In this document: one piece after another, positions 3,367-63,120 of the stretch
Layout of the letters: each line of letters opens with the position of its first letter
Position numbering within the stretch: position 1 is the first letter of the stretch
From: Methylococcales bacterium
GTDB lineage: Bacteria > Pseudomonadota > Gammaproteobacteria > Methylococcales > Methylomonadaceae
Length of the DNA stretch: 64,000 nt
Reading direction: 5' to 3'
NCBI GenBank assembly: GCA_028707085.1
Contig: JAQTUW010000001.1
Location: 57,030-121,029, forward strand
Position numbers and translations under genes: made by a program
The notes under the pieces: generated by a model
The model's database searches: none
The model's input: the letters and a program-made list of their open reading frames with translations, nothing else
What the model was told of the DNA's origin: nothing

Positions 3367-6069
3367 TTATGGAAAGCGGGTTGTTGAGGATGCGTCTGGA
3401 ATGTCGGCGGATTTGGATAAACTGCCTTTCAACAATAACATTGCAACCAGCGCCGTCCAGCCGGTTTGGTGGGACGCGCCTAGCCCTTGACCTGTTTCGG
3501 CATGAAAATATTCGTGGAATAACAATTGATCCCGCCAGTCAGGATCATGTTGCAGAGGATGGTCGGCAGGATAGGCCGGGATCATGCCGTCGGTGTCGCG
3601 CCGAAACAGGTCGATCAGTCTTTGCGCCAGACAAACGTTGATTTCCGCCAGGGTCAAGGGGGTTTCCGCCAGTCCCGGGGCGGACACTTTAAAATTATCG
3701 CCAAGATAGCGGTAAAACTTTTCCAATGTTTCAAGCAGCGAATAATTGGTCGGAAACCAGATCGGTCCGCGCCAGTTGGAATTGCCGCCGAACAGGAATG
3801 AATCGGATTCGCCCGGCGCATAGTCGATCAAGGCCTGACCGATACCCGGCATCAGGCCAAGATCGCGCTGCCGGGCGTGAATCTTGCTGAGGCTGCGAAT
3901 GCCGTAAGCCGATAAAAATTCCTGTTCGTTCAACAGATGCTGCAAGATGCCCGGCAGTATGCCATGATCGACCAAAGACAGCAGATGCTCGCCTTTTTCG
4001 TTGGTCATTTCCGGGCAGGCGCAAATCGTGTGACCGTCGAACATGCCGCCGCGATGCGCATAAAGCATGGCCCTAAAGCGTGGCGCATGGTTCAATATTT
4101 CGGCATCGACCACCTCGGTGGCGAACAGGGGAATAACGCCCACCCAGGAAAACACATCCAGGCGCTGATACTCGCCGGACGGGGTCAGAATCAGATCCTT
4201 GAAAAAGTGGTCTTTTGCATCCCATAATGAAACGCCATGCGGGCCATACCCGGCGATGGCTTTGCCGATCGCCAGAAACTGAGCGTAGCATTGAATGGCG
4301 ATGTCTTCGTAATCGCGTCCGGCCGCGGTCAGCTCCAGCGCCATCATGGTCATATTCAGGGCGGACATGGCCATCCAGCCGGTAGCGTCGGCCTGTTTCA
4401 GCCGATAGCCGGCCGGCAGCGGCCTGGAGCGGTCGTACACTGAAATATTGTCCAGCCCCATAAATCCGCCTTCGAACAAATCGTGCTGTTCGCTGTCTTT
4501 GCGATTCAGCCACCAGGCGTAATTCAGCAGCAGTTTATTCAGCATGCGCTGCAAAAAATTAAAATCCGCGCGTCCATGGCGTTCGCGTTCGGTACGAAAC
4601 ACCGACAAGGCCGCGGCGGCATGGAAAGGCGGGTTGGTATCGTTAAAATCCCATTCGTAAGCCGGCAAATGGCCGTTGGGATGGAGATAGCGCTCGTTTA
4701 ACAGCAGTTCCAGTTGCCGTTTGGCGAATTCGATGTCGATGACTGCATAGGCTATCGCCTGATAAGCCACGTCCCATCCGGCAAACCACGGGTATTCCCA
4801 GCAATCGGGCATGGCGATAATGTCATGCGCTTGCAGATGCCGCCACTGGCGGTTGCGTATCCCTATCCGCTGTTTGGGTGGCTGGATTTTGTCGCCATCC
4901 TGCCAGCGCGCCACATCAAAGTGATAATACTGCTTGTTCCAGATCAGGCCGGCCATGGCCTGGCGAAAAATTCGCCTATCCTGTCCGGCCGTCATGTCCG
5001 GCAAAAAGGCTTGATAAAACTGGTCGGCTTCCTGGCGGCGTTGGTTTAAAACCGCTTCGAAATCCGACCGGGTTAGCGTCGTCTGTTCGCTGCTCAAAAC
5101 CAGATCGATGCTTTCCGTTGCGCCGGGTTCGATGCTCAGCGCATGCCAGGCCGCGCTTTTGCTGCCTTTTTGAGCCGGATTGACGGCTTGCTGCTCGCCG
5201 TTGACCACGGCGCGATGAAACGCGTCCTTGAGGTAAGGGGTGGTATTGGCCTGCCCCCATAGCGTCTGGGTGTTGCTGTCGTTTTCCGTAAACAAAAGCC
5301 GGGCGGTCTGGCGGCCATGCAAACGGTACGAACCCAGACCGGAGCAATAGCCTTCGATGGCCCAGGCCATCCCTTCGCCGGGATCGCCGGCTACCAGTTG
5401 CGGGCGCTGTTGGCCGTCGCCCCAGGACCAGACGTTGCGATACCATAAAGTCGGCAGCACATGCAGGCTTGCCGCTTGCGGGCCGCGATTGGCGATGTTG
5501 ACGCGGCAGAGAATGGTTTCGGGGCTGTGTTTGGCATAGATGATATCGATGTCGAAGTAGCGGTTTTCCGCAAAAACGCCGGTATGCTCCAGTTGAAAGG
5601 GTGGCGTGCGGCGGTCGCGGCGACTATTTTCCTGGATGAGTTGCTGATAGGGAAAAAGGCTTTGCGGGTATTTATAACGGTAATGCAGATAGCTGTGGGT
5701 AGGCGTTGCATCCCGATAAAAATAAGCTTCTTTAACCTCTTCGCCGTGGTTGCCTTGCCGATTGGTCAAACCGAAGGCGCGTTCTTTAAGGATGGGATCG
5801 ACGCTATTCCAGAACGCTAGGGCGAAACACAGGCGCTGCTCTGTGTCGCAGAGGCCGCCCAGCCCATCTTCGTTCCAGCGGTAGGCGCGAGAGCGGGACT
5901 GCTCGTGGGTAAAATAGTCCCAGGCCTCGCCGTCGGCGCTATAGTCCTCGCGAACTGTGCCCCAGGCGCGTTCGGCCAGATACGGCCCCCATAATTGCCA
6001 GTCTTGCTGGCCGGCGGTTTGGGCTTCAAGGCGCTGGCGTTCGACCAAGGGCGGTTTGTTATTCATCAT
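3367..6069 (-). CDS. Large cytoplasmic GH63/MGH1-like glycoside hydrolase (glucosidase family)
   Basis: This is a 900-aa uninterrupted ORF. The N-terminus WQLWGPYLAERAWGTVREDYSADGEAWDYF and the (alpha/alpha)6-type C-terminal region resemble the conserved bacterial 'glucosidase' family. The call comes from recall, not from an alignment. Confidence 0.6.
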   Translation of the reverse strand: MMNNKPPLVERQRLEAQTAGQQDWQLWGPYLAERAWGTVREDYSADGEAWDYFTHEQSRSRAYRWNEDGLGGLCDTEQRLCFALAFWNSVDPILKERAFGLTNRQGNHGEEVKEAYFYRDATPTHSYLHYRYKYPQSLFPYQQLIQENSRRDRRTPPFQLEHTGVFAENRYFDIDIIYAKHSPETILCRVNIANRGPQAASLHVLPTLWYRNVWSWGDGQQRPQLVAGDPGEGMAWAIEGYCSGLGSYRLHGRQTARLLFTENDSNTQTLWGQANTTPYLKDAFHRAVVNGEQQAVNPAQKGSKSAAWHALSIEPGATESIDLVLSSEQTTLTRSDFEAVLNQRRQEADQFYQAFLPDMTAGQDRRIFRQAMAGLIWNKQYYHFDVARWQDGDKIQPPKQRIGIRNRQWRHLQAHDIIAMPDCWEYPWFAGWDVAYQAIAYAVIDIEFAKRQLELLLNERYLHPNGHLPAYEWDFNDTNPPFHAAAALSVFRTERERHGRADFNFLQRMLNKLLLNYAWWLNRKDSEQHDLFEGGFMGLDNISVYDRSRPLPAGYRLKQADATGWMAMSALNMTMMALELTAAGRDYEDIAIQCYAQFLAIGKAIAGYGPHGVSLWDAKDHFFKDLILTPSGEYQRLDVFSWVGVIPLFATEVVDAEILNHAPRFRAMLYAHRGGMFDGHTICACPEMTNEKGEHLLSLVDHGILPGILQHLLNEQEFLSAYGIRSLSKIHARQRDLGLMPGIGQALIDYAPGESDSFLFGGNSNWRGPIWFPTNYSLLETLEKFYRYLGDNFKVSAPGLAETPLTLAEINVCLAQRLIDLFRRDTDGMIPAYPADHPLQHDPDWRDQLLFHEYFHAETGQGLGASHQTGWTALVAMLLLKGSLSKSADIPDASSTTRFP

Positions 6070-27732: not shown

Positions 27733-28028
27733 AAAACATTCCGGTTTTGTTGAGAATTGCCGCCACGCATTGGCGGATAAAGGTTATTTTGATGTATATT
27801 AATAATCTAATTGTGAAATTAGATTCATTTTTCCCGTAAGCAAATAGTATAAAAAATATGTTTACGGCAACATATATTTGCAAATTTATATGACAATAAT
27901 GTTAATGTTTGATTAATATTTTATTTGGTAACCTTTCGGCTGGCTTGCAATGGACTTTGGTATTAAACGCTAGTTGAAACGGATTGTCATAATAGGGATG
28001 TGTTTATAATATTTATCCTTTTTAATCA

Positions 28029-28346
28029 TTAACGCCAATACGCATTCCCCCAGATGTCGTATTTTGTTTCGGCGCAAGTTTTGTTTGCATTTGCCGACAC
28101 AAGGCGATATGAACCACCAAGTTTCATTGTTCCTGCCACCTTGCTGTGTTTGTCACAAAGGGGAATAACATACCGACCGCAATCGATTATGCTGACCTTT
28201 TGCACAAGCGCACCTACAGTCGCGACTTCAAAGCATGATTTCTCCGCACAACAAGTCGCTTTTTCACAGCTATATTTTTCCCAATGAGCGAGCCAGCTTT
28301 TGCATTTGCATCCGGCAAACCGACCATTAATATTTTTTACCTTCAC
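28029..28346 (-). CDS. Small Cys-rich protein (9 Cys in 105 aa), putative Zn-binding, family unknown
   Basis: The spacing GCKCKSWLAHWEKYSCEKATCCAEKSC...DCGRYVIPLCDKH suggests zinc knuckles of treble-clef or HNH-like type. The gene sits in a visibly AT-rich islet. Confidence 0.5.
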   Translation of the reverse strand: MKVKNINGRFAGCKCKSWLAHWEKYSCEKATCCAEKSCFEVATVGALVQKVSIIDCGRYVIPLCDKHSKVAGTMKLGGSYRLVSANANKTCAETKYDIWGNAYWR

Positions 28347-28652
28347 ATCTCTCCTTTCAGCTATTTATTAGGCCGGTCTAATGACTAAATTTCCTATTAT
28401 GACTTATGGTGAGAAAATGGAATACGGTACTTGCGCGGTGTCGTGGTTAAACGGGCCACGTTACCAGGTAATCCCAGCTCGATATTATTTCATTAGGATA
28501 TCTCGTGGCGGCCGTAACGGTTGGGCCATGCTCTGCCGACTGACTTCGTTCAGATGAGGTACCGCACTAATCAGGATTCTTAAAGCATGAATCGCGCCAA
28601 TATATAGATAGCTGATAATCAAATATTTTTATTTGAATTGAAAATATAAAAA

Positions 28653-28687
28653 CATACTATATTTGCAGTGACTGCAAATATAGTATG
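28653..28687. repeat. Perfect 35-bp palindrome (17-bp arms, 1-nt centre)
   Basis: CATACTATATTTGCAGT g ACTGCAAATATAGTATG was read directly. It lies in the divergent intergenic region between 28346(-) and 28928(+). Confidence 0.9.
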
Positions 28688-28840
28688 CAAGAATGGTATG
28701 CAATTGCCGGGCGGCGGCCTGAGTCAAAAAATAAAATCACTAAATAACCATAATATAATATTGGTAATTATTTCTATATATAAGCCGGAATGGGCGGCAG
28801 TGGCCTGAGAGATGCGAGACGGACAGTTCGCTTAGTGGAT

Positions 28841-28895
28841 GTCGTAGCGCGAATCCTGATAGAATCTTCGGACGCGGCTATCGACCTCTGTTTTT
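28841..28895 (+). terminator. Terminator-like hairpin plus T-run in the 5' leader of the DUF1624 gene (possible attenuator)
   Basis: GTCGTAGCGCG...CGCGGCTATCGAC forms an imperfect stem with two bulges. It is followed by CTCTGTTTTT and ends about 33 nt before ATG 28928. Confidence 0.3.
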
Positions 28896-28927
28896 GATGT
28901 CCCGATAAAGAAATCCTTCCGGATCGG

Positions 28928-30139
28928 ATGGGCAGGCTAAATGGCATACAGGATCATTACGCTTTGAATACCGAATCATCATCAGGAAGACTTGCTTCCA
29001 TAGACATTCTGCGCGGACTGGTCATGGCCTTAATGACGCTGGATCATACCCGCGATTTTTTCAGCAACGCCCATTTCAGCCTGACCAATCTGGACAAAAC
29101 CACGGTGGCGTTGTTTTTAACCCGCTGGATTACTCATTTCTGCGCGGCGGTGTTTGTTTTTCTGGCCGGCTCCAGCGCCTATTTGTGGGTGTCGCGCCGT
29201 GGGCCCGGCGCGCCCATCAGTTCGTTTTTGTGCAAGCGCGGCCTGTTGCTGCTGGTTTTGACCACTACCGTTGAAGCCTGGGCGTGGAATTTTCGGCACG
29301 ACTTTCAGCATCTCAACGGCGGCGTGCTTTGGGCGATAGGTTGGTCCATGATCGTCATGGCCGGTCTGGTCAAACTACCGCTGGGCTGGATTGTGGGCGT
29401 CGGAAGCTCGATGATAGTTCTGCATAACGCATTCGACCCGCTGGAATCCGCAAGCCTGGGCGTATTCGGCCCCTTGTGGGCGGTGCTGCATACCGGCCAG
29501 GCGCTCAAGCTGGGCGGCGGCTGGGAGCTTAACCCCTATTATCCGTTGATCCCTTGGATAGGGGTGATGGCTGTGGGTTATGGTTTTGGCAAATGGATGA
29601 GCATCAGTCGGTTGCGCACCCGGCGGCGTTTGCTGGCGCTGGGCTGTTCCCTGATAGCCGCGTTTTTCCTGCTGCGCCTGAGCAATCTCTATGGCGACCC
29701 AAAGTCCTGGCAAGTCTTTCCTGATCCGGTCTTTACGGTTTTATCCTTTATCAATTGCCAAAAATATCCGCCGTCGTTGCTGTATTTATTAATGACGCTA
29801 GGCCCGGCGATCGTATTTCTGGCTTTGGTCGAGGGCGGCGCGTTAAATTGGCTGGGATTTTTGCGCGTATTCGGCAAAACGCCGCTGTTTTTCTATCTTT
29901 TTCATTTATACCTGATCCATCTCGCGGCGCTTGCCGTTGCGGCGTTCGACAACGGGCCGGTTTCGGCGTTGGCCGGCGGCGGCATCTGGTTGCCGGAATT
30001 GCCCAAAGAATACGGATACGGCTTGCCGACAGTTTATCTGTTATGGTTGCTGATGTTGCTGATGCTGTACCCGATTTGCCGTGGATTCGAAACCCTAAAG
30101 GCAAACCGGCCGCATTGGGGTTGGCTTAAATATCTGTAA
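28928..30139 (+). CDS. DUF1624 / heparan-alpha-glucosaminide N-acetyltransferase-like polytopic membrane protein
   Basis: RLASIDILRGLVMALMTLDHTRDFF is the family's N-terminal signature. The protein has about 10 hydrophobic segments. Confidence 0.7.
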   Translation: MGRLNGIQDHYALNTESSSGRLASIDILRGLVMALMTLDHTRDFFSNAHFSLTNLDKTTVALFLTRWITHFCAAVFVFLAGSSAYLWVSRRGPGAPISSFLCKRGLLLLVLTTTVEAWAWNFRHDFQHLNGGVLWAIGWSMIVMAGLVKLPLGWIVGVGSSMIVLHNAFDPLESASLGVFGPLWAVLHTGQALKLGGGWELNPYYPLIPWIGVMAVGYGFGKWMSISRLRTRRRLLALGCSLIAAFFLLRLSNLYGDPKSWQVFPDPVFTVLSFINCQKYPPSLLYLLMTLGPAIVFLALVEGGALNWLGFLRVFGKTPLFFYLFHLYLIHLAALAVAAFDNGPVSALAGGGIWLPELPKEYGYGLPTVYLLWLLMLLMLYPICRGFETLKANRPHWGWLKYL

Positions 30140-50367: not shown

Positions 50368-52433
50368 TTACAATTCAGCCAGTCTGGCCGTAACCCAGTC
50401 ATGGTTGTTCTGGAATTCCGCAAACGCCGGGGATTGTTTTACCAGTTCAGCCAGAAGCTGCTCGGCTTGCCGGTAATAGTCTTTGGCTGGCTGAAGCTGG
50501 CTGGTTTGCTGGTAAAACTCGCCTAATTTGATGTAAGCAACCGCCAGGCCGTTTTTAAAGCCGACATGCTCCGGATAGGCGTGATGCAGTGCCTGACTCA
50601 ATTTGGCATGGTCTGCAAAATACCGCAAAGCGCGTGGCAAATTGCAGAGGGTTAACTGATAATTCCCCAGTCTTTCGCAAAGGATAGCCAGGTCTTCATC
50701 GGCCTGATCCAGGTGTAAAACCAGTTGCCCGTCATAATGGGCGAACAGCCCGGCCTGTTGATAATCGGCGTTCGGCATGTGTCCGCTGCTGGGTTCATAT
50801 TCCAGTTTGTTTATCAGCCCTTTAATCAGGCCCCGGCCATCTTCCAGCAAACGCGGCTGATTTTTGCGCAGCACAATCTCCTGCACCACCGGGCTGATTT
50901 TAAATTCCGTTCCATCCTGTCTATCCAGCCAGCCTTTTTGGGACAGGTCGAGCAGGGCGGTTTCCTGTCCGGCCAGATTCGGCAGCAGCGCTTCCAGGCT
51001 GGCGTAACTGATAAATTCCGCAGGTAGCAGCGAAAACACCGACAGCAACGCGGTCTCCACCTCGCTTAATTCACTCAAATCGTACATCGCCGCAATAACC
51101 GCTTCCGGCGTGGTTTCGCGTAAGGCCACATGCCCGGCGCATGATAGTCGATACCCACTTCGGTATGGTTCAAACTTAATAAACCGTGCTGTTGCAGATC
51201 GTGGAGCAGGTCGGCAAGCCGGTAACGGACTTTAAGGCCATTGCGCTTGCTCAGGTATTTCACCAGCAGTTTTATGACCAGGGTGTTATAACCGACAGCG
51301 GCCAGTATTTGTTCCAGCAAACCGTCTTCGCCGGCGTCATGCTGAGGGTAAAAGCGCTTGAACAGATCGGCCGCCGCAGAAGCGGGCAAGGCGGCGATTT
51401 TATAAGCGGGCAGATGTTCAAATACGGTAATACGGCTGGTGAGCAGGATATGAAAATTCGGACAGCGGCGCAAGGCAAGATAATAATCCGTCAGCTCATT
51501 AAGCTTATTGGCGTTGTCGATGACTAATAGACTGGGCTTGGCCAATTCCAGTAAGGCGGTCAAAATAGCCTCCAGGCGTTCGTTTTCAGTACAATGAGCT
51601 TAAACTCAAATCTGCAAGGGCGGGGCCCAGCCCCAACAAGGCGTCCAGCAGACTGGTTTCGGCAAATACCCAGGCCATGTGCTTATAATTTGAACGATGC
51701 TTATGATAATAATGCGCCGCCAGCGTGGTTTTGCCGATGCCGCCTTCGCCATTCACCAATAATAAAGGCCGGCCGCTTTGCAGATTGTCCTCAACGGCTT
51801 TGATATCCGCTTCCCGGCCTATGAATTCCTCGGAAAGAAATGGCGGGGTGTTGAGGATTTTGCGGATTTTTTTATCACCATAATTAAAAAAATGGACATG
51901 ATCGGCTTTTTCAATATAAGACCCTTGTGTGTCCTGCCGTATGTGACGCTGTTCCTCTGCCATAAATGATGTCCGATTAAGCAGTAGGCAGTGTAATTCT
52001 TTTGCCGGTGGAAGGCTATTGGTTATTTATGGTTATATTCCCGGCAGTTTCGATATATTGGCATTTCTCGCCTTGTGTGATTGTTCGGGTTGGTTCAGGC
52101 TTGACGGTTGGGTCTTTAAAATAGGTGAAAATAAACGGTTTTTTACTTATCCTTGAAATGCCCAAAAGCCGTTTCAAATTCTTCAGCAGTGTACATGCCG
52201 ACTTTATTGCAAGCCAGCAGTACAAAAACATCGGCTTCGGCAATTTTTTTGTTGTACTCATCCTGGGATCGAGTTAGCGACATCCGCGTAGTCAAATCTT
52301 CCCAAATATCCAAATCCAAAACTACGGCCTGATCATGCCACAGCTTGTTTTTACGGGAAATCTCAGTTTCAAACTGCTGGCGCTCGGCTTTCAGTTTGTT
52401 TGATGAGGCTAGAAAGAGTTTGATGTGCTGCAT
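50368..52433 (-). pseudogene. Degraded STAND NTPase: TIR-like N-terminal domain, NB-ARC P-loop NTPase, TPR-like repeats, broken by at least 4 frameshifts or stops
   Basis: Five consecutive minus-strand ORFs lie in frames 2,1,0,2,0. The N-terminal domain is IKLFLASSNKLKAERQQFE...ADVFVLLACNKVGMYTAEEFETAF, continued in another frame by KKPFIFTYFKD. Walker A is LLLVNGEGGIGKTTLAAHYY. After a frame change come ENERLEAILTALLELAKPSLLVIDNA (Walker B) and HILLTSR. A helical-repeat C-terminus follows. Confidence 0.65.
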
Positions 52434-58460: not shown

Positions 58461-59013
58461 AACCGTCTCTTCGACAGACTGCGCTGTTTGCCCCATGCTG
58501 TTGACGCTTCGGGCTTTGTGGGCCATGATCCGCAAAACCTGGCGCTGGCTCAATAACGATGCCGGCGCTTACGCGCCGTTATTGCCGAGGCTGCTGCTGG
58601 CTTACGAGTTTCTGGAGGCGGGGCGGGAAAAATTATCCGCCGAAAACTGGTTTTCCGAACTGGCGTTTCCGTTTCCATTTAATTTATTATCAGCGGACGT
58701 AAACTGGGAGTTGTCTATCGGACTGGAAATCATCGCCCCCATCGCCCTGATTTTAGGCATTGCCACCCGCTTTTTCAGCGCGGCGCTGGCTGTGCTGACG
58801 ATAGTCGCCATTGCCGTAGCGCATTGGCCCGGGCAATGGCAGTCCCTGGCCGAATTGTGGCGTGGTTACGCCATTACCGACCAGGGTTACGGCAATTACA
58901 AGTTACCTTTAATGTATTTGTTCATGCTGATCTCCCTGCTATTGAGCGGCGGCGGCCGGTTAAGCATGGATGCCTGGCTGGCCTGCCGAATGAAACAGTT
59001 TAACGATGGATAA
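58453..59013 (+). CDS. DoxX-family membrane protein
   Basis: It is a four-helix hydrophobic protein containing LLPRLLLAYEFLEAGREKL. It overlaps the upstream gene by 8 nt. Confidence 0.7.
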   Translation: MNKTVSSTDCAVCPMLLTLRALWAMIRKTWRWLNNDAGAYAPLLPRLLLAYEFLEAGREKLSAENWFSELAFPFPFNLLSADVNWELSIGLEIIAPIALILGIATRFFSAALAVLTIVAIAVAHWPGQWQSLAELWRGYAITDQGYGNYKLPLMYLFMLISLLLSGGGRLSMDAWLACRMKQFNDG

Positions 59014-59569
59014 AAACCAGTTGCATACCCACCGCGAAGTATTGTTCCGCTATGCCCTGTTGCAAGTGCGTAACGAAGCCGCTGCGGAAGACGCTGTGCA
59101 GGACACCCTGCTGGCCGCCTTTCAATCAGGCGACAGTTTTCGAAACGAATCGGCTGTCAGAACCTGGTTGATCGGCATTCTGAAACATAAGATCGCCGAC
59201 CACCACCGCGCCGCCGAAAAAATACATAGCCTGGCGGAGCATGGCGATGGCGATGAATCCGATCCGGACGCAGCCGTCGAAAGATTGATTTTTGACGACA
59301 AAGGCCATTGGATCGGTACGCCCGGCGCCTGGAAGGAGCCTGATCACGCCCTGGAACAAAGCGAGTTCTGGGCGATTTTCGACTGGTGCCGGCAAAACCT
59401 GCCGCCGCCGCACGCCAGGGCGTTCATGTTAAGGGAGATGGTCGGCCTTGAAACCGATGATATTTGTTTGGACATGCAGATCAGCCACGGCGCCTGCCGG
59501 GTTTATTTGCACAGGGCGCGGCTGGTATTGCGGGAATGCCTGGAACTGCGCTGGTTTAATTCTAATTGA
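59006..59569 (+). CDS. ECF-type RNA polymerase sigma factor
   Basis: Region 2 is FRYALLQVRNEAAAEDAVQDTLLAAF...RTWLIGILKHKIADHHR. A region 4 HTH is present. It overlaps the DoxX gene by 8 nt. Confidence 0.85.
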   Translation: MDKNQLHTHREVLFRYALLQVRNEAAAEDAVQDTLLAAFQSGDSFRNESAVRTWLIGILKHKIADHHRAAEKIHSLAEHGDGDESDPDAAVERLIFDDKGHWIGTPGAWKEPDHALEQSEFWAIFDWCRQNLPPPHARAFMLREMVGLETDDICLDMQISHGACRVYLHRARLVLRECLELRWFNSN

Positions 59570-59751
59570 ACAATATGAAGAACTGTAAAGACATTAGCGG
59601 ACTCGTTTCGGAAAGCATGGATCGACCTCTGACATTCCGGGAGCGCTGGGCCGTGCGCCTGCATTTTTTCATGTGCCGCTCCTGTGCGCGGTTTCAGCGA
59701 CAAATCCGCTTTCTGCGCAAGATGGCCAGCCGTTACCAGCCCGGGGATTAA
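59566..59751 (+). CDS. Short zf-HC2 (ZAS-type) anti-sigma factor without a TM segment
   Basis: The H-x3-C-x2-C motif is HFFMCRSC. The gene overlaps the sigma factor gene by 4 nt. Confidence 0.7.
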   Translation: MNNMKNCKDISGLVSESMDRPLTFRERWAVRLHFFMCRSCARFQRQIRFLRKMASRYQPGD

Positions 59752-59787: not shown

Positions 59788-60528
59788 TTACGCCTGCGCC
59801 GAGACTACCGCGTTTAACAGGGAGATGGCCTTGCGCATGCCGGTTTCCAGATTTTTTTCGATTTCCGCCATGCTGATCTCGCCGGCGGCCAGTCCAGCGC
59901 CCCAGTTGGCCACCACCGAAATATTGGCGTAAGCCATGTCCAGTTCTTTGGCCAGTGCGGCTTCCGGCATGCCGGTCATGCCCACCAGGTCGCAGCCGTC
60001 TTTAGCCAGTCGCGCTATTTCCGCCGCTGTTTCCAGTCTTGGCCCTTGCGTACAGGCGTATGCGCCGGTAGCCGTGATGGCGACGCCTGCCAGAGCGGCG
60101 GCGGCGATAAGCCGTTCCCGCAGGCTTTGGGTATAGGGATAAGAAAAATCGATATGGGTGACATGATCCTGCTCGCCGTCAAAAAAAGTATGTTCCCGGC
60201 CATAACTGTAATCGATGATCTGATCGGGTATGGCGATATGCCCCGGCGTCATGGCCGCACTGACGCCACCCACCGCGGCAACCCCGATGATGCTGTCGGC
60301 TCCCAGTTGCTTTAGGCCCCAGATATTGGCCCGATAGTTGATTTTATGGGGCGGAATGCGGTGCGGATTGCCGTGTCTGGCCAGAAACAGCAGTTTTGTC
60401 CCGTTCAGTTCCGCTCGCAGATAGTCTGCGGACGGCTCGCCGTACGGGGTTTGCAGTTTTATCCTGTCTATGATCTCAAGATCATCGATCTGCGTCAGGC
60501 CGGTACCGCCAATAATTGCCAGTGTCAT
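59788..60528 (-). CDS. mtnP: S-methyl-5'-thioadenosine/-thioinosine phosphorylase
   Basis: The protein contains IIGGTGL, FLARHG..H.IPPH.INYRANIW.LK.LG and GMTGMPEA, which are PNP/MTAP family motifs. Confidence 0.85.
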   Translation of the reverse strand: MTLAIIGGTGLTQIDDLEIIDRIKLQTPYGEPSADYLRAELNGTKLLFLARHGNPHRIPPHKINYRANIWGLKQLGADSIIGVAAVGGVSAAMTPGHIAIPDQIIDYSYGREHTFFDGEQDHVTHIDFSYPYTQSLRERLIAAAALAGVAITATGAYACTQGPRLETAAEIARLAKDGCDLVGMTGMPEAALAKELDMAYANISVVANWGAGLAAGEISMAEIEKNLETGMRKAISLLNAVVSAQA

Positions 60529-61082
60529 AAAACTTCCTTGCAGGCATAGACGCCGTCTGCGTTTCTAAGATAGCCCTTGTAGTCCATGCCATAGCCGAAC
60601 AGGTAATGGTTCTCCACAGTCAGGCCCACAAAGTCGGCTTGTACCGGTTTTTCGGTTCCCAGCATCTTGTCCAGCAGAGCGGCGGTATACACCTTGCGCG
60701 CGCCCTGTTCCAGACAGTAATCAACAATGGCCCGTAAAGTGTAGCCCTCATCCAGAATATCGTCGATGATCAGAATGGTTCTATCCGCCAGCGGGGTGGT
60801 CGGTTTGAACAACCAGTGGATTTTCGCCGAGCCGGCGGTGGTGTTCCGGTAACGGCTGGCGTGTATGCTGTCCAGCATCAGCGGGAAATCCAGTCGCGGC
60901 AGCAATTTGCCGGTGGGGATGATCCCGCCGTTGATGACGCAGAGCACCAGCGGATTGCTGTCCTGTAATTGTGCGGTAATTTCGGCCGCCATTCTGTCCA
61001 GCGCGGCTTCCACCTGCTGGCTATCATATAGGCGGATGGCGTGTTTGCGGATATGGTTTATTTCATCAAGCATGGGATTCAC
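60525..61082 (-). CDS. hpt: Hypoxanthine-guanine phosphoribosyltransferase family protein
   Basis: The PRPP loop is ILIIDDILDEGYTL. It has a GTG start and overlaps mtnP by 4 nt. Confidence 0.8.
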   Translation of the reverse strand: MNPMLDEINHIRKHAIRLYDSQQVEAALDRMAAEITAQLQDSNPLVLCVINGGIIPTGKLLPRLDFPLMLDSIHASRYRNTTAGSAKIHWLFKPTTPLADRTILIIDDILDEGYTLRAIVDYCLEQGARKVYTAALLDKMLGTEKPVQADFVGLTVENHYLFGYGMDYKGYLRNADGVYACKEVL

Positions 61083-61095
61083 AAAGTTGTCTGAT
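61076..61095. repeat. Direct repeat copy 1 (GATTCACAAAGTTGTCTGAT), spanning the hpt start codon
   Basis: It is an exact 20-bp match to 62114..62133, read directly. Confidence 0.95.
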
Positions 61096-61196
61096 TGTTT
61101 TAGGGTTCTTCGAGCTGCTGAGTGCCGGAGAGCTCTGCCGATGCGTCAGGGCCAAGGTTTCGAGGTTAGCTGTTATAATGTTTGGCTAATCCTTAA

Positions 61197-61363
61197 CTAG
61201 GAGCCTGTCCGAGAATAGAAAACCTACTGCGGAAAAGCCCTTTTGGCCGGATTTCCTGCGCATTTTCGTTAAATAGCGCAACTATTCCGCCTCAAATGCC
61301 CAAAAAATTCAACTCAAAATGGCTTTCCCTCGCTACGGCTTCTATTCTCGGACAGGCTCCTAG
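61197..61363. mobile_element. MITE-like element (~167 bp) with perfect 24-bp terminal inverted repeats including CTAG ends
   Basis: The left end CTAGGAGCCTGTCCGAGAATAGAA (61197-61220) is the exact reverse complement of the right end TTCTATTCTCGGACAGGCTCCTAG (61340-61363). No ORF lies inside. The CTAG at both ends is compatible with an IS5-type 4-bp target duplication. Confidence 0.75.
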
Positions 61364-61693
61364 CGCGATAAGCATTTCAGTGGATTTTATAGTCTTTTGC
61401 CTGTCATCAAAGGTTACTTCGTCATTAAGAAAATAATCGGCAGTTGTTCTACGATCCTTGAGATTTTTAAGCATGTATCCGATTTGCCGGTCTGTGGAAC
61501 TTGGACTTTTGACCAGACTATCTATCAATTGCGAATGAACGCCGCCTGATATGTTTTTATTGGCAAGAAACTTTTCGGAACAATGGTGGTAGGCGGCATA
61601 ATAAGCCCGGCTAATGGCGTTTCGGTTATTTATTTCATTATAGGCAGGCAGGTTTTTAGCAAAACTCAGGAATTCGTCTTTGTTAATTGCCAT
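61292..61693 (-). CDS. HEPN-domain-like protein whose last 24 codons are supplied by the MITE
   Basis: RNAISRAYYAAYHH and RRTTADY are typical of the HEPN helices 1-2 and the conserved R..(A/S)DY block. The reading frame enters the MITE at LGA (61363). Confidence 0.6.
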   Translation of the reverse strand: MAINKDEFLSFAKNLPAYNEINNRNAISRAYYAAYHHCSEKFLANKNISGGVHSQLIDSLVKSPSSTDRQIGYMLKNLKDRRTTADYFLNDEVTFDDRQKTIKSTEMLIALGACPRIEAVARESHFELNFLGI

Positions 61694-61700
61694 GCCGGAT

Positions 61701-61949
61701 CTATCTAAATGAAATCGAAAGCCTGCCTAAATCGAAATTCTCCGCTTCAGCAAATTTTTTGAACAGTTCAAAGTTCATGTCAACTGTAGTATTGACATCA
61801 GCATTGGTTTCAAGTCTTCTAAGTAGGCCGTCGTCGACCGGAATGACGGAAACAGATTCAATTTTAACTGAGTGTCCTACGCTCACTTCATCCACAAATC
61901 TGGCGGCTTGAGCCAATGCTTCCGTTGATACCCCTAAATCCAGAATCAT
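61701..61949 (-). CDS. Hypothetical 82-aa protein, upstream partner of the HEPN gene
   Basis: It lies 7 nt upstream of the HEPN gene on the same strand. It has no nucleotidyltransferase (GS-x-ARG / DxD) motif and no recognised family. Confidence 0.4.
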   Translation of the reverse strand: MILDLGVSTEALAQAARFVDEVSVGHSVKIESVSVIPVDDGLLRRLETNADVNTTVDMNFELFKKFAEAENFDLGRLSISFR

Positions 61950-62103
61950 CCTGGCTTCTGACTTTTTTTCTCACCCGGTTGTAAATCTGCTATTGGTAAA
62001 AGAGTACCACAAATTGCCTGTTTGCCCCCATTCCCGGAATACATGCTTTAATTTTCAGTTGGCGTGCGCATAGGCATGCCTCCCCGTAGGGTCTGCCGAA
62101 ACC

Positions 62104-63120
62104 CTAAGCACTCGATTCACAAAGTTGTCTGATCCGGCCGGAAACCGCCAGCCAGGCATCTGTGAGCGCTAATTGTTCGCGATCGAGTTCATGCCGGCCT
62201 TTCATGTAGTGCATGCGGCGCAGTCTGTCCGGGTTGTCGCGTAGCGGCAGGCTGTCCAGCACCTGTTCTGCGGCGGCGGGCTGATTGCAGACCAGCAGCA
62301 TGTCGCATCCTGCCTGCCGAGCCAGACCGGCGCGTTCCGGAAAATCGCCGATGCTGGCGGCGCCGGCCATGCTCAGGTCGTCGCTGAAGATGGCCCCGTC
62401 AAAACCCAGTTCCTGGCGGAGTATCCGCTGCAGCCAGATTTCCGAAAAACCGGCCGGCAGTTTGTCCACTTGCGGATACAGCACATGCGCTGGCATGACG
62501 GCTTCCAGGCCAGCGGCGATCAGTTGCCGGAACGGTGTTAAATCCTGGCGACGGATAGTGTCCAGATTGCGCTCGTCAACCGGTAGGGTGAGGTGAGAAT
62601 CCGGGGCTACCGCGCCGTGGCCGGGAAAATGCTTGCCGGTGGCCGCCATGCCGGCCCGGCGCATGCCCTGGCGAAACGCCCCGCCCAGATCCGCAGCCTG
62701 CGCCGCGTCCCGAGAAAAGGAACGGTCGCCGATAATTTCGCTGACTCCGCAATCCACATCCAGCACCGGCGCGAAACTGAAGTCCACGCCGACCGCCAGC
62801 AGTTCGGCGGCCATCAGCCAGCCCGCCGGTTCGGCCAGGTCGGGCTGTTGCGCATAGCGGGCGGCGGCCGGCAAGCGGGTAAAGCCGTGTCGAAAACGCT
62901 GCACCCGGCCGCCTTCCTGATCAACGGCGATTAAGATGTCGCCATTGCGGGCGTTGCGGATGTCTTTGATCAGGCCCTGTATCTGCGCCGGGGTTTCGAA
63001 ATTCCGGGCAAACAGAATTAAGGCCCCGGTATTGGGATGGGCGATTTTTTCCCTGTCCAGCGCATTGAGGCTCTGACCCTCGATGTCTAGCATGACCGGG
63101 CCGATAGCGAGTTGTTTCAT
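62104..63120 (-). CDS. nagZ: Beta-N-acetylhexosaminidase (peptidoglycan recycling)
   Basis: The protein contains GPVMLDIEG, LILFARNF, IAVDQEGGRVQRF and KHFPGHG, which are GH3 NagZ motifs. Confidence 0.9.
   Translation of the reverse strand: MKQLAIGPVMLDIEGQSLNALDREKIAHPNTGALILFARNFETPAQIQGLIKDIRNARNGDILIAVDQEGGRVQRFRHGFTRLPAAARYAQQPDLAEPAGWLMAAELLAVGVDFSFAPVLDVDCGVSEIIGDRSFSRDAAQAADLGGAFRQGMRRAGMAATGKHFPGHGAVAPDSHLTLPVDERNLDTIRRQDLTPFRQLIAAGLEAVMPAHVLYPQVDKLPAGFSEIWLQRILRQELGFDGAIFSDDLSMAGAASIGDFPERAGLARQAGCDMLLVCNQPAAAEQVLDSLPLRDNPDRLRRMHYMKGRHELDREQLALTDAWLAVSGRIRQLCESSA
62114..62133. repeat. Direct repeat copy 2 (GATTCACAAAGTTGTCTGAT), inside the last codons of nagZ
   Basis: It is an exact 20-bp match to 61076..61095. 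Confidence 0.95.

Follow-up and report, generated by a model that had tools for sequence, protein, structure and literature searches.

Insertion at the nagZ/hpt junction

We analysed a stretch of 64,000 nt (the window) from a Methylococcales bacterium (GCA_028707085.1, contig JAQTUW010000001.1, positions 57,030-121,029 of the forward strand), in which about 1 kb of foreign DNA lies between nagZ and hpt, bounded by a perfect 20-bp direct repeat. The insert holds the 3' fragment of one gene and a damaged HEPN-fold gene, the latter interrupted near its 3' end by a miniature inverted-repeat transposable element (MITE). nagZ, the two open reading frames (ORFs) of 82 aa and 133 aa within the insert, hpt and the downstream PNP gene all lie on the minus strand, and nagZ, hpt and the PNP gene remain intact. 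By window position the features are as follows.

59788..60528, minus strand: PNP/MTAP-like gene, overlapping the end of hpt
60525..61073 (ATG) or 61082 (GTG), minus strand: hpt (hypoxanthine-guanine phosphoribosyltransferase), intact; NCBIfam PRK09162, E=5e-74
61068..61095 (perfect core 61076-61095): repeat copy 1, hpt side; native, holding the hpt ATG and the ancestral nagZ end, and matching the relatives' junction (…GTGAATCCCATGCTTGA…)
61096..62113: inserted foreign DNA, the 1,018 bp between the perfect copies
61096..61185: arm between copy 1 and the original HEPN stop, 90 bp; no homolog
61100..61112, plus strand: left subterminal inverted repeat, TTAGGGTTCTTCG
61197..61363: MITE of 167 bp with 49-nt imperfect terminal inverted repeats and CTAG at both ends, inside the 3' end of the HEPN gene
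61292..61693, minus strand: HEPN-fold (UPF0332-type) gene, now 133 aa; homology to relatives over 61364-61693
61701..61970 (ORF 61701-61949, 82 aa), minus strand: 3' fragment of the partner gene, the last ~89 codons of a gene of ~241-249 aa
61971..62113: arm between the truncated gene and copy 2, 143 bp; no homolog, no ORF
62097..62107, minus strand: right subterminal inverted repeat (CGAAACCCTAA on the plus strand)
62106..62133 (perfect core 62114-62133): repeat copy 2, nagZ side
62104..63120, minus strand: nagZ (beta-N-acetylhexosaminidase), intact with an altered C-terminus, …ESSA*; NCBIfam PRK05337, E=1e-134

The 20-mer GATTCACAAAGTTGTCTGAT occurs at 61076-61095 and 62114-62133 and at no third site in the window, even with three mismatches; at that tolerance zero occurrences are expected in shuffled sequence. 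It is the longest perfect direct repeat of the window, the others of at least 16 nt being three 16-mers that lie tens of kb apart. Ungapped extension lengthens the match to 28 nt with 25/28 identical (61068-95 versus 62106-33). Copy 2 codes for NagZ ...IRQLCES, after which come SA and a TAG stop. Removal of 61096-62133 in silico yields NagZ ...IRQLCESHA with a TGA stop, and this stop and the hpt ATG overlap in ATGCTTGA; in this reconstructed empty site, one repeat copy and the 1,018 bp between the copies are deleted. A first-pass annotation of the window had proposed the repeat, the weaker similarity beyond it, the coding role of copy 2 and the restored junction, and all four hold, the repeat being a unique pair. 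It had also placed a GTG start of hpt within copy 1. That GTG (61082) is indeed there, but only as the start of the longest ORF; the conserved start is the ATG at 61073-61071, immediately outside the perfect 20-mer, and an Hpt of 182 aa is the product called in contig L096.

Two independent short contigs (Logan, SRR22315508) are 100% identical to the window, L081 over 61339-62180 and L096 over 59958-61225, and each spans one junction. Because both junctions recur in these independent contigs, the arrangement is not a chimeric assembly.

Empty sites in relatives

A scan of relatives, taking one genome per species, returned 80 nagZ loci, and relatives of either insert ORF were found at 0 of these 80. 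The nagZ, hpt and PNP genes abut by coordinates in ~40 Methylococcaceae loci (Methylomonas, Methylobacter, Methylovulum, Methyloglobulus, Crenothrix and others). We read the junction sequence directly at 13 loci, the closest relatives among them, and in all 13 the stop of nagZ and the start of hpt overlap (ATGCTTGA, ATGCTTAA or ATGCTAGA); the reconstructed empty site of the window aligns base for base to these junctions. The closest available relatives (L140-L143, with 78-79% NagZ identity) have the empty site, with an 8-nt nagZ/hpt overlap. Among the 120 closest NagZ homologs listed, the window NagZ alone ends ...ESSA and most end ...E[ST]HA; with its ...LCESHA, the reconstructed protein has the same C-terminus as P0014. 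The first-pass proposal that the DNA was inserted rather than ancestral is thus borne out by the relatives' junctions. No database record was found of the exact NagZ or of the 185-aa Hpt, and with the nearest NagZ relatives on record only 78-79% identical there is no strain-level filled/empty polymorphism to compare.

The GC content is 0.40-0.44 inside the insert versus 0.55-0.65 in the flanks, and this drop of 15-20 points marks the insert as foreign. The insert DNA has no match in phage records, and plasmid records match the MITE only. We regard the insertion, its foreign origin and the degradation of both of its genes as essentially certain. The comparison of junctions supports the reading of the insert as a lineage-specific insertion at a conserved, overlapping nagZ/hpt junction.

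The truncated partner gene

The 82-aa ORF had first been taken for a gene in its own right; tblastn and phmmer searches instead identify it as the 3' fragment of a longer one. The gene before the HEPN gene codes for 241 aa in three independent lineages (L082/L083, L091-L094 and L087/L088; it is annotated as 278 aa in L087/L088, Methylomonas sp. AM2-LC), and these full-length partners align to the window only by residues 153-241, at 61704-61970 (tblastn). An in-frame TGA at 61971-61973 is the upper limit of homology to the partner proteins. An exhaustive phmmer search of 1.84 billion representative proteins found only nine relatives of the partner C-terminal domain; the full-length ones have 243-249 aa and match through residues ~161-241. 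A full-length homolog (L091) matches phrog_17809 with E=2.7e-5. On reading the sequence, no obvious ribosome-binding site precedes the ATG of the 82-aa ORF.

The AlphaFold2 (AF2) model of the full-length partner P0131, with a predicted local distance difference test score (pLDDT) of 88, divides into a TPR array/helices (residues 1-163) and a small alpha/beta domain (168-242), and its PDB neighbours are TPR proteins. Because the model splits the protein in this way, we conclude that the window keeps the alpha/beta domain only: the 82-aa ORF is the C-terminal alpha/beta domain of a TPR protein, with the whole TPR domain lost. Full-length partners gave weak TPR matches only and no nucleotidyltransferase match. 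Of the five full-length partners searched with PADLOC, four had no hit and P0131 had a weak, unrelated REase_II similarity (E=0.005).

We also found a second, independent short partner (108 aa, with homology from residue ~132), which precedes an intact 117-aa HEPN gene (L089 4058-4749, L090 334-1025). This suggests either that decay of the partner is recurrent or that its C-terminal alpha/beta domain may be able to stand alone.

The HEPN gene and its MITE

The first-pass annotation had called the 133-aa ORF HEPN-like. The family assignment is upheld by profile, fold and homolog names, while Pfam places the protein below threshold and the ORF itself proves to be altered. The ORF matches phrog_5176 (E=8e-23); its homologs are of 114-121 aa, several of them named UPF0332 by the Joint Genome Institute (JGI); and the family profile (A1) matches the PDB entries 9xbd and 9xbc, 'HEPN domain-containing protein' (E=8e-8 and 7e-7). 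The AF2 model (pLDDT 90.7) has five helices, and its top Foldseek match is 2hsb (AF0298 HEPN/UPF0332), with probability 1.00 and a template modelling (TM) score of 0.67 at an E of only 0.02, followed by HEPN, HepT and HEPN-MNT entries. The protein thus combines an all-alpha bundle with a profile-level sequence match, and we place it in the HEPN fold (UPF0332 / PF05168 type) on the profile, homolog names and fold match, the single-sequence PF05168 score being below the gathering cutoff (13.1 versus 22 bits; the homolog L089 reaches 20.1 bits).

The invariant residues of the family are R24, R29, H36, H53, R69, R82, D86 and Y87. The conserved C-terminal motif is R82-x3-D86-Y87, without the His of the Rx4-6H motif, and aligns with RNRSDY of 9xbd; an R29-x6-H36 pair is present in an earlier helix. 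With R-x3-D-Y in place of Rx4-6H as the C-terminal motif, the sequence gives no ground for inferring RNase activity. PADLOC and NCBIfam yielded no named family of defence or toxin-antitoxin proteins; the similarities to HEPN_IX and PDC-M05B that they returned were weak.

Among the closest known systems is HEPN-MNT (HepT-MntA), which likewise has a small HEPN-fold protein immediately downstream of a partner, in mobile and variable contexts, and structures of which are also among the fold matches. The partner gene here, however, encodes a TPR region and a small alpha/beta domain and no minimal nucleotidyltransferase (MNT); the HEPN protein has R-x3-D-Y without the His of Rx4-6H; and the window's partner is truncated.

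The presence of a MITE, noted in the first pass, is confirmed. The element has the marks of one: short and non-coding, it ends in inverted repeats, has further copies elsewhere and duplicated its target precisely. Its CTAG target resembles that of IS5-type elements. HEPN homology to relatives ends at ~61362-61364, which is the MITE boundary, and over its final 23 codons the 133-aa ORF runs on into MITE sequence. Removal of the MITE and one CTAG gives a HEPN ORF of 114 aa ending ...LIALVKD*, with its stop codon at 61186-61188; the closest homolog is likewise 114 aa and ends ...LIALVDN*. Related MITEs occur in two related methanotroph metagenome-assembled genomes (L015 5377-5539, L024 ~4048-4072), and a conjugative Pseudomonas plasmid carries a full-length match at 78% (NZ_CP034782 140983-141149). 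Since excision restores the HEPN ORF and relatives of the MITE occur elsewhere, we conclude that the MITE is a later, independent, secondary insertion.

The gene pair at other loci

A profile search found the HEPN family on 42 IMG/VR viral contigs; a single-sequence search of viral contigs gave none. One phage contig (L098), with large terminase, portal and Bro-N genes, carries a complete pair of 243 aa and 114 aa. Methylomonas sp. AM2-LC has the pair in a prophage-like region, beside terminase genes and with a head-tail connector gene within a few kb. At other loci the pair has varying neighbours, among them a transposase and a restriction-related gene, while the gap between partner and HEPN gene is 7-13 nt. 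The gene pair behaves as a mobile accessory module.

The first-pass annotation had the unit moving as such, and this finds no support: elsewhere the gene pair is bounded neither by the TTAGGGTT ends of the insert nor by long or similar repeats. The proposal of a mobilised cassette survives as far as the insertion of foreign DNA is concerned; the cassette is not intact, its partner gene lacking the 5' part and its HEPN gene being disrupted at the 3' end by the MITE, and from this we conclude decay.

Three further observations concern the pair. The AM2-LC copy (L087 5001-5273, CP157005) has a degraded HEPN gene of 90 aa, with a TTG start and a truncated 3' end, next to an intact partner. A motif, GGGCTATTTTTATG[AG]GAAAT, is conserved ~40 nt before the partner start in L082 (~1740-1790) and L091 (~1600-1650), whose proteins are only ~50% identical; it is probably the promoter or operator of the module. 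The same two loci have long palindromic sequences just upstream, resembling repetitive extragenic palindromic (REP) elements or MITEs.

The ends of the insert

Short inverted repeats inside both direct repeats, noted in the first pass, are confirmed. The two ends of the insert share an exact inverted 8-mer, TTAGGGTT/AACCCTAA, set in from the perfect repeats by 4 nt and 6 nt; a match of this kind within 25 nt of both ends has p ~0.007. These inverted repeats, of 8-11 nt, are subterminal: the outermost bases of the insert are unrelated, and the direct repeats are not abutted. An extra GGTTTCGAG motif occurs at 61153-61164. The motif TAGGGTTTCGRG has 12 matches in the window versus 7.3 expected, two of them in the arms, which is only suggestive. 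Neither arm had an Rfam match or structure beyond that of shuffled sequence; no terminator-like site and one promoter-like site were found, which is not above chance.

No ORF of recombinase size fits in the insert, as the first pass had noted, and nothing in the insert can now mobilise it. We considered the 20-bp core as a dispersed motif or as the attachment site of an incoming element (attP) and rejected both, with 0 exact 20-mer matches in viral contigs and 1 in all metagenome contigs (L097); that contig shares nothing but the 20-mer with the window, and the match is an unrelated chance one. The first-pass view that the repeat is not a dispersed motif therefore stands. Exact 20-mers from both arms had 0 matches in viral contigs, and no other copy of the unit or of its ends was found in the 64-kb window, in viral contigs or around the gene pair at other loci.

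Origin of the insert

Judged by its sequence anatomy, the insert is best read as a decayed, integrase-less, att-flanked remnant of a site-specifically integrated element, probably phage-derived; we put the probability of this reading at roughly 55%. An att-flanked relic at the 3' end of a gene is a known, ordinary kind of genomic relic and not a new mobile cassette. The element would have integrated in the last codons of nagZ by recombination of its attP with a chromosomal attB whose core of ~20 bp reads ATCAGACAACTTTGTGAATC in gene orientation. If the attP carried a look-alike of the remainder of the gene, nagZ would thereafter end ...ES-SA* on element DNA, and the 10 nt at 62104-62113 (CTAAGCACTC) do read as such a surrogate gene end, apparently supplied by the element and coding SA*. 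The native end, ...ES-HA*, would have stayed with hpt, overlapping its ATG, and the two core copies would be attL and attR. One or more internal deletions would then have taken the integrase and almost everything else, leaving 1,018 bp: a short arm at either end and, between the arms, what is left of an accessory module (the 3' third of the TPR-domain partner gene and the UPF0332-type HEPN gene). Later an IS5-like MITE would have landed on a CTAG in the last HEPN codons.

Several lines of evidence favour this course of events. First, similarity beyond the 20-mer is one-sided. Toward the nagZ stop 5/10 bases match (GAGTGCTTAG versus native CCATGCTTGA, gene orientation), on the upstream nagZ side 1/10, and the extended similarity runs as far as a stop codon whose position is exactly the native one. 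We prefer att-type integration to target-site duplication because the similarity is one-sided and imperfect and ends at the nagZ stop; a true target-site duplication starts out identical in both copies, and for a 30-bp duplication to have since acquired five changes confined to one terminal 10-nt block, with zero in the other 20 nt, has p ~0.008. The duplicated target of the first-pass annotation thus gives way to an attL/attR pair, which better fits a sharp edge on one side and imperfect similarity up to the stop on the other. Second, when the attP is reconstructed as right arm, core and left arm, the TTAGGGTT inverted repeats stand symmetrically about the core, the pattern that would be expected of recombinase-binding elements. 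Third, the direct repeats bound DNA that is absent from relatives with empty sites, and the 3' end of the gene is completed by insert DNA. The damage to both insert genes, the phage association of the pair and the low GC content also speak for it. The truncated partner gene, moreover, marks at least one internal deletion junction, at ~61950-61971.

Precedents exist for both the integration and the decay. In Escherichia coli, e14, itself a defective remnant, is integrated in icd, replaces the 3' end of that gene with its own DNA and is bounded by an attL and an attR that are homologous to each other (PMC6379469). The window resembles e14 and phage 21 in icd in having attL/attR-type repeats, in element DNA that codes for the last residues (…SA* versus native …HA*) and in a native end duplicated on the far side. 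It differs in that the duplicated block is 20 bp perfect or 28 bp imperfect versus 163 bp in e14, that no integrase is present and the relic is 1 kb, and that the searches turned up neither an intact parent element nor an attP for the insert. A recognised class, the cis-mobilizable elements (CIMEs; PMC5704250), comprises elements that lack integration genes but retain attL and attR; with these the insert shares att-like repeats at both ends, the lack of a recombinase, a location at the 3' end of a gene and decayed cargo. Unlike CIMEs, its cargo looks phage-derived rather than derived from an integrative and conjugative or integrative and mobilizable element (ICE/IME), and we know of no resident element whose integrase would match.

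Several results weigh against this reading. No cognate integrase, attP or intact parent sharing the core was found: six-frame translation of both arms gave no recognisable integrase remnants, none of the window ORFs scanned with Pfam was an integrase (the window was not screened as a whole), and the viral, metagenome, phage and plasmid collections held no attP, no intact parent element and no second copy of the arms or core. Nothing is integrated at the nagZ/hpt junction in ~45 related genomes; the junction is thus not a recurrent integration hot spot. The HEPN gene is not enriched near the ends of viral contigs (24% in the outer 10% versus 20% expected). The 5/10 extension by itself is weakly significant (p ~0.08), and the inverted repeats in the reconstructed attP are 30 bp apart, wider than a classical tyrosine-recombinase core. 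Shrinkage to 1 kb with both att sites spared, finally, needs one or two internal deletions. In the literature searched we found no paper linking nagZ with attB and an integrase, nor UPF0332 with HEPN.

An objection to the att-remnant reading is that the insert may simply be a stray foreign fragment captured by illegitimate recombination or break repair, its 20-bp duplication coming from staggered-break fill-in or replication slippage and being retained because nagZ and hpt both stay functional only where an insertion duplicates the overlap. Capture of this kind would accord with the fragmentary cargo, both genes of which are damaged, with the lack of a recombinase and of any related element in the collections searched, and with a site unused in every other genome examined; given the nagZ/hpt overlap, events duplicating the junction are those that selection would let through. 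It leaves unexplained the inverted repeats inside both ends and also the fact that nagZ, ending on the insert, keeps exactly its native length, matches the native end at 5/10 bases and has its stop at the same codon. Clean 20-bp duplications are not known to us as a routine product of any bacterial end-joining route. We consider fragment capture unlikely, though it deserves to be kept in view.

A second objection, in line with the first-pass reading, is that the insert may be a non-autonomous cassette with terminal inverted repeats, akin to a mobile insertion cassette (MIC) or a large MITE, moved in trans by a transposase that cuts its target with an unusually long stagger, so that the 20-30 bp repeat would be a target-site duplication. 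A short transposase-less unit with passenger ORFs, a flanking direct repeat and the inverted 8-mer near both ends does recall MICs and MITEs, and long duplications of variable length are known, as in IS1549/IS1634 (8-514 bp; PMC2266710). The inverted repeats of the insert, though, do not abut the direct repeat but lie 4 nt and 6 nt away from its perfect copies. One-sided similarity that ends at the nagZ stop is not what a duplication predicts, the cargo includes a truncated gene fragment, and the unit is known as a single copy: the gene pair occurs elsewhere without these ends, and no second copy of either end was found in the window or the collections searched. We rate this possibility as improbable.

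Lower still do we place the prospect that the ~1-kb unit, an att core with TTAGGGTT arms, might be a live integrase-less micro-element moved in trans by a phage or island integrase and carrying a streamlined HEPN toxin with only the neutralising alpha/beta domain of its partner; the short partner of L089 and L090 is a hint that this domain might be enough. That the insert is ancestral DNA or an assembly artefact is scarcely credible: apart from the apparently metagenome-type source assembly nothing speaks for it, and every relative junction read is an empty site (with the 8-nt overlap in the L140-L143 gene calls), GC drops by 15-20 points, and both junctions recur in L081 and L096.

Other features of the window

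At 50368-52433 (minus strand), where GC is 0.44-0.50, four consecutive short ORFs encode 96, 125, 162 and 253 aa; the 125-aa ORF has a P-loop, GEGGIGKTT, and matches NB-ARC and AAA_16. The four look like one fragmented STAND/NB-ARC-type NTPase gene, a possible second instance of decay in a defence-like gene of the window. A cysteine-rich 105-aa ORF without a Pfam match (28029-28346, minus strand) lies in a compositionally foreign patch of 42% GC (28001-29000). Convergent with the nagZ-hpt-PNP operon, on the plus strand at 59006-59751, lie a 187-aa ORF and, overlapping its end by 4 nt, a 61-aa zf-HC2 anti-sigma-like ORF; its position suggests the 187-aa ORF as a candidate extracytoplasmic function (ECF) sigma factor. 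Relatives carry a 64-aa gene at the same position.

Implications

Annotators of this region should mark the 82-aa ORF as a fragment of a gene and the 133-aa HEPN ORF as a variant fused to a MITE. A TPR and alpha/beta protein followed by a UPF0332-type HEPN protein constitutes a rare phage-associated pair, neither member of which fits a named defence or toxin-antitoxin family, and the intact copies (L091, L082, L098) could merit testing as a toxin-antitoxin or anti-phage module. For the host, foreign DNA has split a family-conserved, translationally coupled, overlapping nagZ/hpt junction without damage to either gene, because the incoming DNA gave a surrogate gene end and the native end was left before hpt.

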